This document shows positions 1,341-42,446 of a stretch of DNA of 64,000 nucleotides, piece by piece; position 1 is the first letter of the stretch; the number at the start of each line of letters is the position of its first letter. This DNA comes from a virus. The notes beneath the pieces are model-generated. The model saw only the letters and a program-made list of their open reading frames with translations. It was not told the origin of the DNA and did no database searches. Where the stretch lies: IMG/VR virus record IMGVR_UViG_3300037245_003639; one strand, given 5' to 3'. Position numbers and translations under genes: made by a program.

Positions 1341-2456
1341 TTATTTATTCTTGGCAGTCTTCGGGGCTTTGTCCTGTTGGTTCTTGCTCTTATTCTCAAC
1401 TGCCAGTGATTTGATCAAACAACCATTAGACACCGCATACAGGGGATTTTCGGCCAAACGAGCGCTCTTCACTTTGAAGGGCAAGTCCACAGATTTGAGC
1501 ACTGCGTTAAATTTTTCCATGAAGCCAGGCACGCTGGCAGTCCCTCCTGCCACAATAACTTCCAGCGGAGAATCTATCTGGTTCTCAAGCTCATTGAATT
1601 TTTGAGCAAAATTCCGCAGAGCATGCTCAATCATGTTCTGATAAAAGATCTTCAAAGCTGCCTGACGCATATCAGACATATCCACATTGTTTAGGTCAAA
1701 GTTCTTTTCTTTGTAGCGAGTAATCACGGACATATCCACGCCAGCAACCTTGGCCGCTTCGCGGTCAATCCAGTCGCCCGAACGAGCTATGGAAAAACTA
1801 ATCAACGGCATTTGCCTGTAAGCAAAACAAACATTGCACATTCCAGCCCCAAAGGAAAAGGCAATTCCTGTAAATTTAGCCTCACCATTAGGTTCATTTT
1901 CATCTGGCATCGTTGGCTGCTCGCTGAAGATAATGGCCATCGCTTCCGGAATGCATTCGATAGAATACCCCAGTCCCTGCAAAAAACTCGTCAGCATAGT
2001 CTTGTGAAACATTACAGACAGATTGCTATCGATTGGATCTCCAGGAGAACAAAAACACAAAGTCTCATCAGGCTGGTTTGGCTTACCCAATAGATTCTCG
2101 ATGAGTTTTTGAATGATGGCTACACTGAGCTTTTCCTCGCTGGTATTCAGGATACCATTCTGCATTGGGCGCCGAAGTTCACTTATTTTGGTTGCGATTA
2201 GATTTTCGTTCGTCGAACTGGATTTTATTGTAAGAAGGTTTTTGAGTTTGATAGCATCCTCGCCAAGTATGTAAAAGTCATCATCATACTTGGCATATGC
2301 CCAGTTGTTTTCTTTGAGAGTTTCCTCGGTATCGTCAGTGGTAGCAGCATTGAGGAAAACGTTGCGTTCAACAGTAAAAGCACTGCCCCCACCCGCTATA
2401 TCGTCTACTTCGCTTTTGACGAGAAACATGGTCCCGATATCAAGGCCCTTAGCCAT
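1341..2456 (-). CDS. actin-like ATPase (ASKHA superfamily, ParM/MreB/Hsp70-like)
   Basis: N-terminal phosphate-1 motif GLDIGTMFLVK and C-terminal VIVAGGTASVPGF adenosine/phosphate-2 motif. Confidence 0.6.
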   Translation of the reverse strand: MAKGLDIGTMFLVKSEVDDIAGGGSAFTVERNVFLNAATTDDTEETLKENNWAYAKYDDDFYILGEDAIKLKNLLTIKSSSTNENLIATKISELRRPMQNGILNTSEEKLSVAIIQKLIENLLGKPNQPDETLCFCSPGDPIDSNLSVMFHKTMLTSFLQGLGYSIECIPEAMAIIFSEQPTMPDENEPNGEAKFTGIAFSFGAGMCNVCFAYRQMPLISFSIARSGDWIDREAAKVAGVDMSVITRYKEKNFDLNNVDMSDMRQAALKIFYQNMIEHALRNFAQKFNELENQIDSPLEVIVAGGTASVPGFMEKFNAVLKSVDLPFKVKSARLAENPLYAVSNGCLIKSLAVENKSKNQQDKAPKTAKNK

Positions 2457-24884: not shown

Positions 24885-26645
24885 ATGCTAGTTGTGAAAA
24901 GTTATCAACTGAACAAAACAGCGGCCCTACCTGCTGATATTTCTTTGCCTCTGGATGGTAAAGAGGAGCAAATCTTCTCTTTTATCAGACGGGCCATAGG
25001 TTCTATGCCCAAAGCTCCTGTGGCTCGGGTCGCCGGGGGCTGGGTGCGTGATAAATTACTGGGAAAACCGTCGAAAGACATTGATATTACAGTCGAAGGA
25101 ACCACAGGAGTTGAATTTGCAAATGCTCTCAGACAATATGCCATCGAAACCCAAGGAACAAAACAGAACATAGTTAGTCGGGTCAAAGACACAGAAGCGC
25201 GTCCCGAGCAAATCAAGAACTTGGCTGTTGCATTCCTGCGTATCTTTGATCAGGATATGGAAATTCTTGATCTGCGAGCAATCGAGTTCTATGAGAAGGG
25301 CAATCGAAATCCCACTGTGATTCGTCTCGAAGAGTTGAAAGCCATTGCACAACAACAGGGAATTCCGAGTTTCGTCAAAGACAAAGCTCCCCATTTGTTA
25401 TCTGCCATTAGCAAATTACCACATGGTAACAGCAACCATCCCAATGAAGTTCTTAAAACCCTTGACGCTCATCGACGAGATCTTACGATAAACTCGCTTT
25501 TCTACAACATCAACACAACGGAGATTGAGGATTTTACAGGTGAGGGATATGACGATTTGCTGACAATGACATTGCGGACTCCTATTGAACCCGTGAAAAC
25601 TTTTCAAGATGACCCTTTGCGAGTTCTTAGGATTCTGCGTTTCCACAGTCGTTACCCGAATTCCAAGATAGCCCCCGAAATTATTCAAGCAATGGCAGAT
25701 GAAGAAGTACAACATCAGATTACTCGTCGTCTTATCAAAGCAGATGAAACCGCAGGCATCGTCCCTGAAAGGACTGCTGAGGAATTACGCAAGCTAATGA
25801 TGGGAGCCCAGCCCGAAGCCGCTCTGCGGGTGATGCATGAAACGGGCCTGCTCCAGAAGATGTTTAATCTGCCAAAGGAATTTCACCCTCTGAATATGGA
25901 CCAAATGAGTTCATATCACAGTCTATCGGTTATTGAGCATATTCTAAATGTAGTAAAGAATGTCAATAACCTAGCCCAGGAATTCAATCTGTCTGGCCAG
26001 GAGAGGATGTTTCTAAATCTGGCCTCTCTATTCCACGACCTTGGGAAACTTGATCCTCGATCACATAAAGCAAAACCAGATGGAACAAGAGGCTATTCAG
26101 GAAGTGAAGCTGATGATTCACTGACCCATGAGCAATCCAGCTCAGATATGTGGGAAAGATTCGCGAGGGCTCTGAGGCTCAGTGATAAAGAACGGACAAC
26201 CATCCAAGATGTTGTTTCGGGGCACATGCGTCCACATGCTCACTTCGAGAATGAGATGCAATCTGCATCGGATAGAACATTACGACGTTATATGCGTAAA
26301 AACCCCCTATGGAAGTTGCAATATATCCTTGCCATGGGTGATGCTATGTCCAAAGCAGATGAGCCCGAGCCGCAGGCAGCAGACCCATATCGAGCAACCT
26401 ATGAGTACATGCAATCCCCAGGTTTTACCCCTCCACCGAAAAGTACTGAAAGACCTTTAGTAGATGGGCATCGAATCATCGAATTGGTTGGAGCCCATCC
26501 AAAGTCAGGTTACATTGAAGATGTCAAAGAGGAAATCAATCGCCTCCGCGATGAGAATCCTGCCTTAACTATTCAAGAAGCAGAACAGTTTATTCTCCAA
26601 ATGAAGGCCGATGGAGCATTCGCCCATCTTCCTCCTCTCCGTTAG
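24885..26645 (+). CDS. cca: CCA-adding tRNA nucleotidyltransferase with HD domain
   Basis: GGWVRDKLLG...DIDITVEG head motif, RRDLTINSLFYN, DPLRVLRILRF, HD motif LFHDLGK. Confidence 0.85.
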   Translation: MLVVKSYQLNKTAALPADISLPLDGKEEQIFSFIRRAIGSMPKAPVARVAGGWVRDKLLGKPSKDIDITVEGTTGVEFANALRQYAIETQGTKQNIVSRVKDTEARPEQIKNLAVAFLRIFDQDMEILDLRAIEFYEKGNRNPTVIRLEELKAIAQQQGIPSFVKDKAPHLLSAISKLPHGNSNHPNEVLKTLDAHRRDLTINSLFYNINTTEIEDFTGEGYDDLLTMTLRTPIEPVKTFQDDPLRVLRILRFHSRYPNSKIAPEIIQAMADEEVQHQITRRLIKADETAGIVPERTAEELRKLMMGAQPEAALRVMHETGLLQKMFNLPKEFHPLNMDQMSSYHSLSVIEHILNVVKNVNNLAQEFNLSGQERMFLNLASLFHDLGKLDPRSHKAKPDGTRGYSGSEADDSLTHEQSSSDMWERFARALRLSDKERTTIQDVVSGHMRPHAHFENEMQSASDRTLRRYMRKNPLWKLQYILAMGDAMSKADEPEPQAADPYRATYEYMQSPGFTPPPKSTERPLVDGHRIIELVGAHPKSGYIEDVKEEINRLRDENPALTIQEAEQFILQMKADGAFAHLPPLR

Positions 26646-34050: not shown

Positions 34051-34085
34051 CACGAAAAAACTTTCAGAAATAAGCAGGATTTCCC

Positions 34086-34113
34086 TTGCATCTTCCGAAA
34101 GCTAACGTATAAT
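34086..34113 (+). promoter_or_regulatory. sigma70-like promoter (TTGCAT-16-TATAAT)
   Basis: read directly. Confidence 0.55.
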
Positions 34114-34119
34114 ACCTGC

Positions 34120-34283
34120 GTGGTCGAATGATCGACCACCGAAACGGGACGGTAAGAATGAGATGTTTAGCGGATTCATTGTGGCTCTGTGATTATCTCC
34201 TAACGGGAGAGGCCCCCTAGTCCGCGAACGCATAAGCGATAAAGCGAGACTCGGTGGCCTAAACCAGGCGACCGAGTTTTTTG
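34120..34283 (+). ncRNA. candidate structured small RNA / leader (promoter to intrinsic terminator)
   Basis: hairpin GGTCGAATGATCGACC near 5' end; terminator stem GAGACTCGGTGGCC/GGCGACCGAGT + TTTTTT at 34246-34283. Confidence 0.4.
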
Positions 34284-34300
34284 TTTAACTGGACGAAACC

Positions 34301-34801
34301 ATGAGCAATATGACGGGAAGATTTCTCTCTCAATGGGAGATGGCAGAAGCAAAACGGCATGAAGCCCGAGCAAATTCGATACAGAAGCGAGAAGGAACGA
34401 ACTTCCCGCTCAGCGGAATTATCGCTTGGGGATGTGGCTGTTGCATCGGCCCAAGCATACGGTATGACCAGCCGATTCTGTCGGCATCCGAGGCTGATGG
34501 AGTCTTGAAGCAGCGGAAGCATGAAGTGTTTGGGCATCGAATAGGATGGCTCGACTCAGCGAGAATGCCGTCCCGAGTCCATCGCACTATCGACTGCGGA
34601 GAAACGACCGTTTGCGGGCATGTTCCCGCTGATAACGATTGGATTCTGGCAGAAGTGCCTCGAAAGAATCATGGATACAGCCGGTATTGTCGGACCTGTT
34701 TTCAACAAGGCGGTAAAGCATTGCCTTGGCTGAGAAAAGCGGATGTGGCAGAGCGGATGTGGCGGGAGCAGATATGGCGGAACGGCAGACGCGATAGCTG
34801 A
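34301..34801 (+). CDS. hypothetical Cys/Trp/Arg-rich protein in GC-rich segment
   Basis: 166-aa ORF; internal GCGGATGTGGC tandem repeat; coding status uncertain. Confidence 0.35.
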   Translation: MSNMTGRFLSQWEMAEAKRHEARANSIQKREGTNFPLSGIIAWGCGCCIGPSIRYDQPILSASEADGVLKQRKHEVFGHRIGWLDSARMPSRVHRTIDCGETTVCGHVPADNDWILAEVPRKNHGYSRYCRTCFQQGGKALPWLRKADVAERMWREQIWRNGRRDS

Positions 34802-34808
34802 ATAAAAA

Positions 34809-34883
34809 GGCTGGATAGCCCAATTTGGCAGAGGCATACGGTTCAGAGCCGTAAAGTTATGGGTTCGACTCCCATTCCAGCCA
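34809..34883 (+). tRNA. tRNA, class I (5-nt variable loop), anticodon CAG (decodes Leu CUG)
   Basis: acceptor GGCTGGA/TCCAGCC, anticodon arm TACGG-TTCAGAG-CCGTA, T-arm ATGGG-TTCGACT-CCCAT, A73. Confidence 0.55.
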
Positions 34884-34945
34884 TTGCTAGGCTGCTCAGG
34901 GTGGAGCAGCGAGAGACTTGTTTCAAACTCTCCACCCACAGCTTT

Positions 34946-35018
34946 GCCAAGGTGGCCCAACGGCAGAGGCGTCCGTCTCAAAAGCGGAATGTTGTGGGTT
35001 CGACTCCCACTCTTGGCA
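34946..35018 (+). tRNA. tRNA, class I, anticodon CAA (decodes Leu UUG)
   Basis: acceptor GCCAAGG/TCTTGGC, anticodon arm TCCGT-CTCAAAA-GCGGA, T-arm GTGGG-TTCGACT-CCCAC, A73. Confidence 0.55.
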
Positions 35019-35030
35019 TTGAAAATTAAA

Positions 35031-35104
35031 GCCCAGGTAGCCCAATTGGCAGCGGCTCGTGGTTTAGGTCCACGGAGTTGGGGGTTCGAATCCCTCCCTG
35101 GGTA
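35031..35104 (+). tRNA. tRNA, class I, anticodon UAG (decodes Leu CUA)
   Basis: acceptor GCCCAGG/CCTGGGT, anticodon arm CGTGG-TTTAGGT-CCACG, T-loop TTCGAAT, A73. Confidence 0.55.
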
Positions 35105-35233
35105 TTTAGTCATATTGGACAGGAGCGCAACTACTGTCCATGATTGAGCATAAGTGGCATTGCGTAGGTGCTTATGCAAATGACTAGACCGAGGGTGCAT
35201 TGCACTAATCACTCTAGAGGCTCCTCGGCCGAA

Positions 35234-35307
35234 GCGGCGGTAGCCCAATGGCAGCAGGCACAGCACTTAAAATGCTGACAGTGCGGGTTCGAATCCCGCC
35301 CGCCGTA
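35234..35307 (+). tRNA. tRNA, class I, anticodon UAA (decodes Leu UUA)
   Basis: acceptor GCGGCGG/CCGCCGT, anticodon arm CAGCA-CTTAAAA-TGCTG, T-arm GCGGG-TTCGAAT-CCCGC, A73. Confidence 0.55.
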
Positions 35308-35593: not shown

Positions 35594-35676
35594 GTGGACG
35601 TGGTGAAATGGCAGACACGCCAGCTTGAGGGGCTGGTCCGGGCAACCGGGTGGAGGTTCGACTCCTCTCGTCCGCA
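35594..35676 (+). tRNA. tRNA-Leu (GAG), canonical class II with long variable arm
   Basis: anticodon arm CCAGC-TTGAGGG-GCTGG, variable arm CCGG-GCAA-CCGG, T-arm GGAGG-TTCGACT-CCTCT, A73. Confidence 0.7.
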
Positions 35677-35706: not shown

Positions 35707-35753
35707 ATCGACGCTTGACAGCGTTTCGGGTGTGTGGTAACATACACCCACTT

Positions 35754-35835
35754 GGGTGAGTTGAGCAATTGGCTGCTCAGCGGGCTGTAAACCCGCCGTC
35801 GTGAGGCATTGTGGGTTCGAATCCCTCCTCACCCA
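35754..35835 (+). tRNA. tRNA-Tyr (GUA), class II
   Basis: acceptor GGGTGAG/CTCACCC, anticodon arm GCGGG-CTGTAAA-CCCGC, long variable region, T-loop TTCGAAT; preceded by hairpin GGGTGTGT-GGTAAC-ATACACCC. Confidence 0.65.
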
Positions 35836-35879
35836 TTCCAGGTATAATCCACATGGAGTAAACCATGCTGGAGTAACCA

Positions 35880-36644: not shown

Positions 36645-36699
36645 AGTGCGTAAAAGCAAGTTTCGGGTGTGTGGTAACATACACCCATCTGGGTGAGTT

Positions 36700-36780
36700 G
36701 GGCAGGTGGTGTGCCCAGTAGGCTGTAAACCTACCGTTTCGGCATTGGTGGTTCGATTCCACTCTCACCCATTCCTAGTG
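36700..36780 (+). tRNA. tRNA-Tyr (GUA), second diverged copy
   Basis: acceptor GGGTGAG/CTCACCC, anticodon arm GTAGG-CTGTAAA-CCTAC, T-arm GGTGG-TTCGATT-CCACT; same upstream hairpin motif. Confidence 0.65.
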
Positions 36781-37116: not shown

Positions 37117-37429
37117 TGCGTAAAAGCAAGAACATTAAACAACTGAAGGTGAAAGCTGCCAATGAGTATCGCAAGGGCAACAGGAAGGAGGCTTACAAAT
37201 TGTGGGAAAAAGCCCGAATTGAACGACTTATTCAACAAGAGAAGATGTAATGAGGTGGACTGGTACCAAACAATCGAGAATCCGTTGGCGACGAGCAGTT
37301 AGAAATCATCGAACAGAGCTTCAAGATAAACGTGATTCCTTTCATCGCTCAAAGGCAAAATCAGGGCATCGATATGTCGAGGAACTTATCTGGCCGTTAG
37401 CCTTACGGCCTAAAAAAAGACTTCGTTAG
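37117..37429 (+). other. two very basic small ORFs (44 aa and 59 aa)
   Basis: MRKSKNIKQLKVKAANEYRKGNRKEAYKLWEKARIERLIQQEKM (37117..37251) and MRWTGTKQSRIRWRRAVRNHRTELQDKRDSFHRSKAKSGHRYVEELIWPLALRPKKRLR (37250..37429); below ORF-track cutoff. Confidence 0.2.
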
Positions 37430-37496
37430 GTCATCCAGCGGCTCTGGACCTGGGTCTCCAAAACCCGGAGGATCGGCTCGACCCCGATATGGCCTG
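37428..37496 (+). tRNA. tRNA-like element, anticodon-loop CCA (Trp-like) with compact non-canonical D-arm
   Basis: acceptor AGGTCAT/ATGGCCT, anticodon arm TGGGT-CTCCAAA-ACCCG, T-arm ATCGG-CTCGACC-CCGAT; only 69 nt, D region 16 nt. Confidence 0.3.
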
Positions 37497-37535
37497 TTGA
37501 GAGGATGCGGCCTAGCAGTAATTGCTTACATACTC

Positions 37536-37620
37536 TTTATGTGGGTTCGAGTCCCATCATTGCAGAGATTCTGCGATGTAGCCTAACTGGCAAAGGCAAC
37601 TGTCTGCAAAACAGTGAAGT
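37536..37620 (+). tRNA. split/circularly permuted tRNA-like locus: 3' half (T-arm + acceptor 3' strand + G73) followed 6 nt later by 5' half (acceptor 5' strand, D-arm, anticodon arm with GCA)
   Basis: 3' half TTATGTGGGTTCGAGTCCCATCATTGCAG almost identical to 3' half of tRNA at 34809; 5' half TGCGATG-TA-GCCTAACTGGCAAAGGC-A-ACTGT-CTGCAAA-ACAGT; acceptor halves complementary (7/7 with G-U). Confidence 0.4.
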
Positions 37621-37660
37621 GAGAAAACAGCAATGCAAACTTTCGCATCCTTCTCTTTTT

Positions 37661-37731
37661 GAGCGCGTACCCAAGTGGCTAGGGAGCGGATTGCAAACCC
37701 GCCTACGTCGGTTCGACTCCGACCGTGCTCT
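37661..37731 (+). tRNA. tRNA-Cys (GCA)
   Basis: acceptor GAGCGCG/CGTGCTC, anticodon loop TTGCAAA, T-arm GTCGG-TTCGACT-CCGAC, U73 discriminator typical of Cys. Confidence 0.65.
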
Positions 37732-37735
37732 TGTT

Positions 37736-37809
37736 GGGGCCGTGGTGCAATTGGTTAGCACATCTGCCTGTCACGCAGAAGGTTGCCGGTTCGAGTCCGG
37801 TCGGTCTCG
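37736..37809 (+). tRNA. tRNA-Asp (GUC)
   Basis: acceptor GGGGCCG/CGGTCTC, anticodon arm TCTGC-CTGTCAC-GCAGA, T-arm GCCGG-TTCGAGT-CCGGT, G73. Confidence 0.7.
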
Positions 37810-37812
37810 TTT

Positions 37813-37887
37813 GGGCTATTGGAAGAGTCTGGAGTCTTCGCCTGCTTGTCACGCAGGAGATCACGAGTTCAAATCTCGTATAGCCCG
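37813..37887 (+). tRNA. tRNA-Asp (GUC), second diverged copy
   Basis: acceptor GGGCTAT/ATAGCCC, D-stem GAAG/CTTC, anticodon arm CCTGC-TTGTCAC-GCAGG, T-arm ACGAG-TTCAAAT-CTCGT, G73. Confidence 0.65.
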
Positions 37888-37890
37888 TTT

Positions 37891-37984
37891 GCCACAGTAG
37901 TTTAAGGACTAAGGCAAAACGTCGAGCCCGTCTTCTTAATAGAGCGGGTGCTCGATCATGCGAGTTCGAGTCTCGTCTGTGGCT
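37891..37984 (+). tRNA. 94-nt tRNA-like element with canonical acceptor and T-arm but atypical body (long bulged hairpin with 14-nt loop); identity unassigned
   Basis: acceptor GCCACAG/CTGTGGC, T-arm GCGAG-TTCGAGT-CTCGT; internal hairpin TCGAGCCCG-(TCTTCTTAATAGAG)-CGGGTGCTCGA. Confidence 0.35.
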
Positions 37985-41141: not shown

Positions 41142-41389
41142 CGAAGTATTATCTGTGGGGTAACGGATGTAGTTGCTGGACCATTGACCTTTGGAAAGGG
41201 CGCCGACACTTCGAGATGGTCAAAGAATTCAAGGTGAAAGTCAAGCCCACAAGAACTGCCAATAACGACTTAGATGCCCGGCGGCAAATTCAAACTGACT
41301 ACTTGGAGCGCCGTATAAAAGCTGTAAAATATCTTGTGAAGTTGATGGCCGAAACCGGTATTCCCGCAGTTGGCGGTATGTATGAATAA
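41138..41389 (+). CDS. hypothetical protein
   Basis: 83-aa ORF overlapping neighbours by 4 nt. Confidence 0.45.
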   Translation: MTKYYLWGNGCSCWTIDLWKGRRHFEMVKEFKVKVKPTRTANNDLDARRQIQTDYLERRIKAVKYLVKLMAETGIPAVGGMYE

Positions 41390-41390
41390 C

Positions 41391-42446
41391 ATGGCGAAAC
41401 AAGATTACTACGAAGTCCTCGGAGTTCAACGCAATTCATCTGACGCTGAAATAAAAACAGCATATCGCAAAGCCGCGCTCGACTACCATCCCGACCGGAA
41501 TCAAGAACCTGGAGCAGAAGTCAAATTCAAAGATGCTGCGGAAGCATACGATGTGCTTTCCGATACAGATAAAAGGGCTCAGTATGACCGCTTTGGCCAT
41601 AATTCCCCACAGCAGACTCATTGGTCTCAGCACGATCCATTTGATATTTTCAATTCCTTCTTCGGGGGTTTTGGAAGGCAACGCCAAAAAGGGGCCGATT
41701 TACATGCTCGTATTCGTTTAACACTTGAAGAAGTGGCAACCGGAGTAGAAAAGAACTTCTCTGTTAAACAAACAGACCGATGCTCGAAATGTCATGGCAA
41801 GGGAGGAACCGGCCCTCCTTGTCTTGGTTGCGCTGGTTACGGCCAAGTACGACGCCAGGATGGACCTTTCGTTGTATCAGTAGGAGATTGCCCACGGTGC
41901 CAGGGCTCAGGTATAAAAATAGAACAATCCTGTAACAAATGCTCTAGAAAAGGCCATGTAGAGAACAACAAAACGATTTCCATCAAAATTCCCAAAGGGG
42001 TTGACGATGGGCAGGTTATGAGAATACAACGAGAGGGACATCTGAGCGTTCCTTCTGCTCCCAGAGGAGATTTGTATTGTCATATCGAGATTGCTCCGCA
42101 TTCAGTTTTTGAGAGACGAGGCCCTGATTTGTATATGCACAAAACTATCTCATTTGCGGATGCAGTCGGAGGGATCTCAATCGACGTACCTACCATCGCA
42201 GGAGAAGAAGTTTCATTAAAAGTGCCTCCCGGCACTCAATTTGGTCAGATGCTCAGACTTCATGAAAAGGGAATTGAAGGGGCCATTCAAGTTACTCGTG
42301 GTTCCCCTGTAAAAGTTCGAAAGAATGGTGACCAGTTTGTTCAAATAAGAATAGCAGTCCCACAGAATGTTTCAGATGAGGCTATAAAGATTCTCCGACA
42401 ATTTGAAGACACCGTGGCAGGAAAAAACCACGTCTGCTTCGTATAA
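41391..42446 (+). CDS. dnaJ: DnaJ chaperone (type I, with zinc-finger domain)
   Basis: J-domain DYYEVLGV...YHPDRN; four CxxCxGxG repeats. Confidence 0.85.
   Translation: MAKQDYYEVLGVQRNSSDAEIKTAYRKAALDYHPDRNQEPGAEVKFKDAAEAYDVLSDTDKRAQYDRFGHNSPQQTHWSQHDPFDIFNSFFGGFGRQRQKGADLHARIRLTLEEVATGVEKNFSVKQTDRCSKCHGKGGTGPPCLGCAGYGQVRRQDGPFVVSVGDCPRCQGSGIKIEQSCNKCSRKGHVENNKTISIKIPKGVDDGQVMRIQREGHLSVPSAPRGDLYCHIEIAPHSVFERRGPDLYMHKTISFADAVGGISIDVPTIAGEEVSLKVPPGTQFGQMLRLHEKGIEGAIQVTRGSPVKVRKNGDQFVQIRIAVPQNVSDEAIKILRQFEDTVAGKNHVCFV

Follow-up and report, generated by a model that had tools for sequence, protein, structure and literature searches.

Short-arm (class I) tRNALeu genes in the tRNA array of a huge phage-like genome

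Short tRNA-Leu genes and the surrounding array

The window (the whole 64-kb stretch of DNA that was analysed) carries eleven tRNA genes predicted by ARAGORN, four of which are short tRNA-Leu genes on the plus strand, each also recognised by the Rfam tRNA covariance model (RF00005). These are class I tRNALeu(CAG) (75 nt, 34809–34883; variable loop AAGTT, A73, A37; 56.0 bits), tRNALeu(CAA) (34945–35019, Rfam bounds 34946–35018; variable loop ATGTT, A73; 56.4 bits), tRNALeu(UAG) (74 nt, 35031–35104; G1.U72, variable loop GAGTT, G37; 52.4 bits) and tRNALeu(UAA) (74 nt, 35234–35307; G1.U72, variable loop ACAGT; 61.2 bits). They are followed by a canonical class II tRNALeu(GAG) of 83 nt (35594–35676, plus strand; ARAGORN and Rfam), with which they cover all six leucine codons. 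The remainder of the array, also on the plus strand and found by both programs, comprises two tRNA-Tyr genes (35753–35836 and 36690–36772), tRNA-Cys (37661–37731) and two tRNA-Asp genes (37735–37810 and 37812–37888). The Rfam model matches all four short genes end to end, with scores of 52.4–61.2 bits against a gathering score of 29 and E values of 1e-9 to 7e-12. Agreement between ARAGORN and Rfam on their positions bears out the four short class I tRNAs and their anticodons as originally read, as well as the class II gene placed at 35594.

Parsed ARAGORN cloverleaves are of standard build in all four. The acceptor stems have 7 bp, and positions 8–9 form a two-nucleotide spacer. The D stem is 3 bp long (GCC/GGC) and carries a C13.A22 mismatch, the D loops fit AA(Y)nGGCAG(A/C), the anticodon stems have 5 bp and the T loops read TTCGA(A/C)T. 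The 5-nt variable loops and A73 reported for all four genes are present in these structures, as is the anticodon at positions 34–36 of a 7-nt loop, preceded by U33. The single D arm said to be shared by the four is real as a common form, but not as a strictly identical sequence: that of the CAA gene reads TG GCCCAAC GGCAGAGGC and that of the UAA gene includes GGCAGCAGGC. Pairwise identity among the four is 57–70%, while each is 76–85% identical to class I Leu tRNAs of other phages or bacteria; they are therefore not recent duplicates within this genome, and their description as paralogous holds at the level of the family.

Encoded CCA is absent from the four short genes and from the other tRNA genes of the array, so that a CCA-adding enzyme is needed; one (tRNA nucleotidyltransferase; PHROG 2244, E 9e-40; PF01743 and PF12627) is encoded at 24885–26645 on the plus strand. 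This protein and DnaJ (41370–42446) are identical to proteins on a 403,172-bp JGI contig, which places the window in a huge phage-like genome. Most database matches to DnaJ are unnamed; those carrying names (NCBI-annotated), all at 41–45% identity, are from Planctomycetota/Phycisphaerae. The region also encodes glycosyltransferases, sulfotransferases and a Dam methylase, and the ORF at 1341–2456 (minus strand) matches Pfam Volactin (PF25216) over its full length (E 9e-69).

Several further elements lie in or near the array. Upstream, at 34085–34290, a promoter-like TTGCAT-17-TATAAT precedes ~150 nt of structured sequence (z -2.3) and a strong hairpin with a T run (34247–34290); this is a candidate small RNA, without an Rfam match. 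The UAG and UAA genes are separated by 129 nt (35105–35233) with a fold more stable than that of shuffled controls (-43.3 kcal/mol, z -2.5). A 50-nt direct repeat (35723–35772 and 36660–36709; 90% identity between the copies) takes in a TTGACA-17-TAACAT promoter-like site together with the beginning of each tRNA-Tyr gene, which suggests a duplicated promoter-tRNA module. A Plastid-ycf2 Rfam match on the minus strand of two tRNAs (41.6 and 27.8 bits, below the threshold of 65.7) was dismissed, most likely reflecting tRNA-like sequence within that Rfam model.

Three elements of the downstream part resemble tRNA genes to varying degrees. At 37427–37497 lies a degenerate tRNA-Trp-like sequence (anticodon loop CTCCAAA, damaged T loop CTCGACC), in a slot occupied by an intact tRNA-Trp in one relative (L247, see below). 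The segment 37572–37638 is matched by the Rfam tRNA model at 31.1 bits (threshold 29), without an ARAGORN call, and combines a D arm like that of the class I Leu genes (TAGCCTAACTGGCAAAGGC) with A73 and an anticodon loop for Cys (CTGCAAA). A variable loop and T arm would need 22 nt where this segment has only 15, and it is therefore probably a pseudogene; no counterpart was found in relatives L247–L251. Finally, a 94-nt ARAGORN 'tRNA-Leu(gag)' at 37891–37984 was rejected as a leucine tRNA, with no Rfam match at E up to 1 and a weak anticodon stem; it can also be folded into a long hairpin with a TCTTAAT cap. At this place in the array the relatives have odd tRNA-Cys(GCA) genes (L247, 4955–5032; L248, 3990–4072): in one, of 78 nt, the acceptor/T stems are 8/4, and the other, of 83 nt, bears a long variable arm.

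Displacement of class II genes within a conserved array

Two relatives reached through DnaJ, L247 (70% DnaJ identity) and L248 (52%), have the same array order: Leu CAG, CAA, UAG/UAA, UAA/UAG and GAG, then Tyr, Tyr, then Asp, Asp, Cys. The number of the five Leu slots occupied by class I genes differs among the three, being one in L248 (UAG only), three in L247 (CAA, UAA, UAG) and four in the window (CAG, CAA, UAG, UAA); further class I copies were found in L249 and L250. The window CAA gene is the ortholog of L247 1906–1982, with an identical anticodon arm and variable loop and compensatory changes in the acceptor stem. The UAA gene of the window matches the UAG gene of L247 in acceptor stem, variable loop and T arm, indicating that the anticodon has switched on one and the same body.

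At the CAG locus the outgoing gene is still partly visible. Directly upstream of the class I gene, at the 3' end of the ORF 34301–34801, lies a 32-nt relic of a class II tRNALeu(CAG) (34768–34799, plus strand) comprising the 5' half (acceptor strand, D arm and 5' anticodon stem), with 28/32 positions identical to the intact L247 gene. The first 11 nt of the relic (GCGGATGTGGC) occur twice more just upstream (34740–34750 and 34754–34764), and the 3' flank CATTGCTAGGCTGCTCAGGGTGG is shared. A surviving class II 5' half on one side and a shared flank on the other indicate that the class I gene replaced the 3' two-thirds of the class II gene in place. That the class I gene arose by deletion of a variable arm was considered and rejected: neither its acceptor stem nor its D arm is related to that of the class II CAG gene of the relatives (acceptor identity 0.32), and with the class II 5' half still lying upstream, the gene was replaced, not trimmed. 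In the conserved array of this phage lineage, class I genes have thus displaced class II genes slot by slot.

Class I tRNALeu in phages and bacterial chromosomes

A blastn search of the 499-nt interval containing the four genes against 50,697 deposited phage genomes matched 135 phage records; nearly all matches are annotated as tRNA-Leu, and many are full-length and ungapped over 74 nt. For the comparisons, class I tRNALeu was defined by a Leu anticodon, a 4–6-nt variable loop, A73 and the D arm TAGCCCAAyyGGCAGAGGC, and all four window genes belong to the class so defined. In Cronobacter phage LPCS28 a Leu(taa) and a Leu(caa) gene, each of 77 nt, lie side by side, the former being 86.7% identical to the window UAA gene. 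In Vibrio phage 6E35.1a (KVP40-like) all three Leu tRNAs are short (77–78 nt with CCA), and Ser (89 nt) and Tyr (87 nt) keep their long arms. Two short Leu(tag) genes are found in Streptomyces phage Riptide, and short Leu genes also occur in Rhodococcus phage Francesca and the T5-like Providencia phage PSTCR5; BLAST found none in T5 itself and, within T5-like phages, only those of Providencia and Proteus phages. The short genes of these cultured phages (Cronobacter LPCS28/S13, 6E35.1a, Riptide and related phages, Francesca, PSTCR5) resemble those of the window in length class, D arm, A73 and variable loop. They number one to three per genome, many with encoded CCA, whereas the window has four, all lacking it.

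Scanning IMG/VR for the D-arm pattern returned at least 120 loci, including at least about 80 class I Leu tRNAs; the anticodons among the matches listed are UAA, UAG, CAA, CAG, GAG and AAG. One 234-kb IMG/VR contig is much like the window, with five class I Leu genes and a class II GAG gene. A scan of bacteria (one genome per species; pattern TAGCCCAAN{1,3}GGCAGAGGC) also gave at least 120 loci, with at least 115 class I Leu tRNAs, among the matches listed mostly on Actinomycetota chromosomes and also in Planctomycetota. Most of the bacterial matches listed are from Actinomycetota and have UAA or CAA anticodons and the acceptor strand GCCCCCG, and at 98 of the 120 bacterial loci among the matches listed the class I gene is the only tRNA within 8 kb. 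Loci in Planctomycetota adjoin genes for glutamate synthase, class II aldolase, M17 aminopeptidase and ETF-QO, housekeeping neighbours that indicate a chromosomal context. Class I genes thus lie on chromosomes in Planctomycetota, a CAG-UAA-GAG tandem with housekeeping neighbours among them, in many Actinomycetota and in other bacteria.

The view in the initial annotation that a short-arm family of this kind is atypical is consequently wrong for phages and several bacterial phyla, given at least 135 deposited phage genomes, the viral metagenomes and the bacterial chromosomes. Alignment to other tRNAs, which had been proposed as a check, gives class I Leu tRNAs as the nearest relatives (76–85% identity). 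Such genes are commonplace in phages, a finding that the initial annotation had itself named as one that would refute its reading. Short-arm tRNALeu is much commoner than recent reviews state, occurring in many phages and on Actinomycetota and Planctomycetota chromosomes. According to a 2023 review, tRNALeu is long-armed everywhere except in animal mitochondria (PMC9976931), a statement contradicted by the chromosomal class I genes of Planctomycetota and Actinomycetota. Short-loop tRNALeu(TAG) has been noted in passing in mycobacterial tRNA clusters (Behra et al. 2019, PMC6582537), where the array copy is short-looped and lies beside a normal long-arm chromosomal copy. No paper discussing the short arm of phage Leu tRNAs was found in the library searched, many subscription papers lying outside it.

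One member of the family is known biochemically. In Streptomyces coelicolor a tRNALeu(CAA) is of type I, its variable loop being 5 nt long, and the only LeuRS of that bacterium leucylates it (Fan et al., NAR 2019, PMC6614811). It resembles the window genes in its Leu anticodon, in the length of its variable loop and in coexisting with class II tRNALeu; it differs in being chromosomal and in that only the CAA isoacceptor was studied, whereas the window has four isoacceptors on a phage. The LeuRS of E. coli and of one other Streptomyces could not charge it, so that the host's own LeuRS decides whether charging occurs; in that system A73 was dispensable, and the leucine-specific domain of LeuRS was required (PMC6614811). 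Some tension follows, since enterobacterial and vibrio phages carry short-arm tRNALeu, yet the E. coli enzyme was reported unable to charge the Streptomyces type.

Matching to the host is the simplest reading of the short form. The host of the window phage may be a planctomycete-like bacterium with class I tRNALeu of its own, in which case the phage set would match what the host LeuRS normally charges; the chances of this being the host are roughly even. A more speculative alternative is escape from toxins, long-arm tRNALeu having been exchanged for the short-arm form because tRNA-directed defence toxins or nucleases of the host grip the variable arm. The progressive change from class II to class I within one lineage (one of five slots in L248, three in L247, four in the window) and the class II relic are compatible with such pressure, and the phage encodes a full Leu set in addition to Tyr, Asp and Cys tRNAs. 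Precedents for recognition of the arm exist, as MenT3 needs the long variable loop of tRNASer (PMC11541572) and AbiEii, an abortive-infection toxin, seems to favour class II tRNAs (bioRxiv 10.64898/2026.01.19.700257). Against this, no known defence system targets tRNALeu via its arm, and tRNALeu is not preferred by MenT3 (PMC11541572); the Tyr tRNAs and tRNALeu(GAG) of the same array retain long arms, and occurrence of the same class I type on bacterial chromosomes suggests a neutral or host-matching origin. Escape from toxins is an improbable explanation. If it were true, the class I set would keep leucine decoding alive when class II tRNALeu of the host is disabled, and the class II relic, along with the rise from one to three to four class I slots across the three phages, would show an arms race in progress.

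Leucine identity and the reading of CUA, CUG, UUA and UUG

Leucine determinants in E. coli are A73, A14, the A15:U48 Levitt pair, G18G19, A20a and the D/T elbow, with the anticodon and long arm dispensable for LeuRS (PMC9976931). Every listed determinant is present in the four genes: A73, A14, A15:U48, G18G19 and A20a occur in each, the elbow nucleotides U54, U55, C56 and A58 are intact, and the variable loops end in T. With variable loops of 5 nt the genes lack the long variable stem-loop that defines class II architecture; as the long arm is reported to be dispensable for E. coli LeuRS, the short loop departs from the class II description and not from leucine identity. Compared with E. coli and T4 class II tRNALeu, the window genes have A73, A14, A15:U48, G18G19, A20a and a 3-bp D stem with a 13:22 mismatch in common, and differ in the variable region (5 nt versus a stem-loop of 13–20 nt) and in the D stem (GCC/GGC versus GYG/CRC). 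The anticodon arm of the UAA gene (CAGCA-CUUAAAA-UGCUG) is identical to that of T4 class II tRNALeu(UAA), and also to that of the PSTCR5 class I gene. One feature counts against leucine: CUN readers usually have G37, and the CAG gene has A37.

These features hold across the family. Among 197 unique members, A73 is found in 100% and A15:U48 in ~99%, 13:22 is unpaired in all (C.A in 187) and G.U at 3:70 occurs in none; each stem position is paired in 92–100%, with 4–6 pair types, indicating covariation. The 29 members lying outside the search patterns, and thus free of ascertainment bias, give the same values. In a set of ~580 reference phage tRNAs, A73, A15:U48 and unpaired 13:22 are combined only in class II Leu. 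Comparison of whole tRNA bodies is less decisive: a position-specific log-odds classifier disregarding the anticodon and variable region (home-made; accuracy 74% by leave-one-out) has class II Leu as its best or second-best isotype for each of the four genes, with scores near zero, and nearest-neighbour isotype comparison gives an equally weak answer. The four bodies thus form a family of their own, not obviously Leu-like overall, and with body-only classifiers being weak, isotype was judged from identity determinants and codon-residue alignments instead. The initial proposal of leucine isoacceptors relying on A73 fits all the evidence as far as leucine is concerned, but its basis is wider than A73 alone, including A14, A15:U48, G18G19, A20a, the 3-bp D stem with the 13:22 mismatch and the T-loop elbow.

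The other possibility raised initially was that a synthetase other than LeuRS charges the class I bodies, so that in the infected cell CUG, UUG, CUA and UUA would specify some other amino acid. A short variable loop, deviating from textbook class II tRNALeu, and the lack of a strong Leu call from the body-only classifiers are what this proposal has in its favour. Bacterial synthetases that ignore the anticodon are only LeuRS, SerRS and AlaRS (PMC9976931), and SerRS and AlaRS determinants are missing from every member of the family. In the window genes the tRNAAla-type G3:U70 is absent (the 3:70 pair is C-G, C-G, C-G and G-C, respectively), as are the long variable arm and G73 typical of tRNASer, the variable loop being short and position 73 being A; by elimination, this leaves LeuRS. 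One class I tRNALeu accepts leucine experimentally (PMC6614811), and the same tRNA type occurs as a lone tRNA in housekeeping context on bacterial chromosomes.

Codon-residue alignments also argue against a change of code. Usage of Leu codons over 78 window ORFs is even (12–24% per codon; Leu makes up 8.2% of residues). When the CCA-adding enzyme of the window was aligned with 119 homologues, Leu was the consensus at 29 of the 37 sites scored for CTA, CTG, TTA and TTG, and the mean fraction of L, I, V, M or F was 0.79–0.94 for the four codons compared to 0.55–0.78 for CTC and CTT, the codons that fall to the canonical class II tRNA. The same is seen among the 45 most distant homologues; the sample is of modest size, and many of the homologues are probably from related phages, which may have similar tRNAs. 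DnaJ provides only six sites for CTG, TTA and TTG (none for CTA), with hydrophobic residues in homologues at TTA and TTG and Pro at the single CTG site, and its zinc-finger Cys codons are aligned with Cys. The four codons therefore align with Leu or other LIVMF residues as well as CUC and CUU do, and recoding of CUA, CUG, UUA and UUG is not supported by these alignments; charging with a different amino acid appears very improbable. Nematode nev-tRNAs similarly are of a class (I/II) unexpected for their anticodon (PMC3333845, PMC4300185), but there Gly or Ile anticodons sit on a Leu-type body and mischarging results, whereas in the window anticodon and identity elements agree and no codon-residue mismatch was seen.

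Least credible is that the four are tRNA-like genes without function or acting as decoys, either duplicates in decay or a means of soaking up host enzymes. The decayed tRNA-like sequences of the same array (37427–37497, 37572–37638 and the relic 34768–34799) might suggest this, but the four genes have intact stems, canonical T and D loops, U33, A73 and scores of 52–61 bits, their orthologs in relatives keep the loops and differ by compensatory changes in the stems, and stems covary across the family.

Taken on sequence evidence, the four genes are thus very probably functional leucine isoacceptors of a class I tRNALeu family which, with the class II GAG gene, would give a ~403-kb phage its own decoder for the six Leu codons. 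They are ordinary members of a family that has been characterised biochemically in Streptomyces and is a routine annotation in phage genomes. The phage CCA-adding enzyme would complete the 3' ends of the tRNAs, and the host LeuRS, reading neither anticodon nor long arm, would then leucylate the four. The genes can be annotated as tRNA-Leu, with no evidence of a changed genetic code, and the exchange of class II for class I genes, one slot after another, within a single phage lineage offers a clean natural experiment on the retention and loss of the long variable arm.
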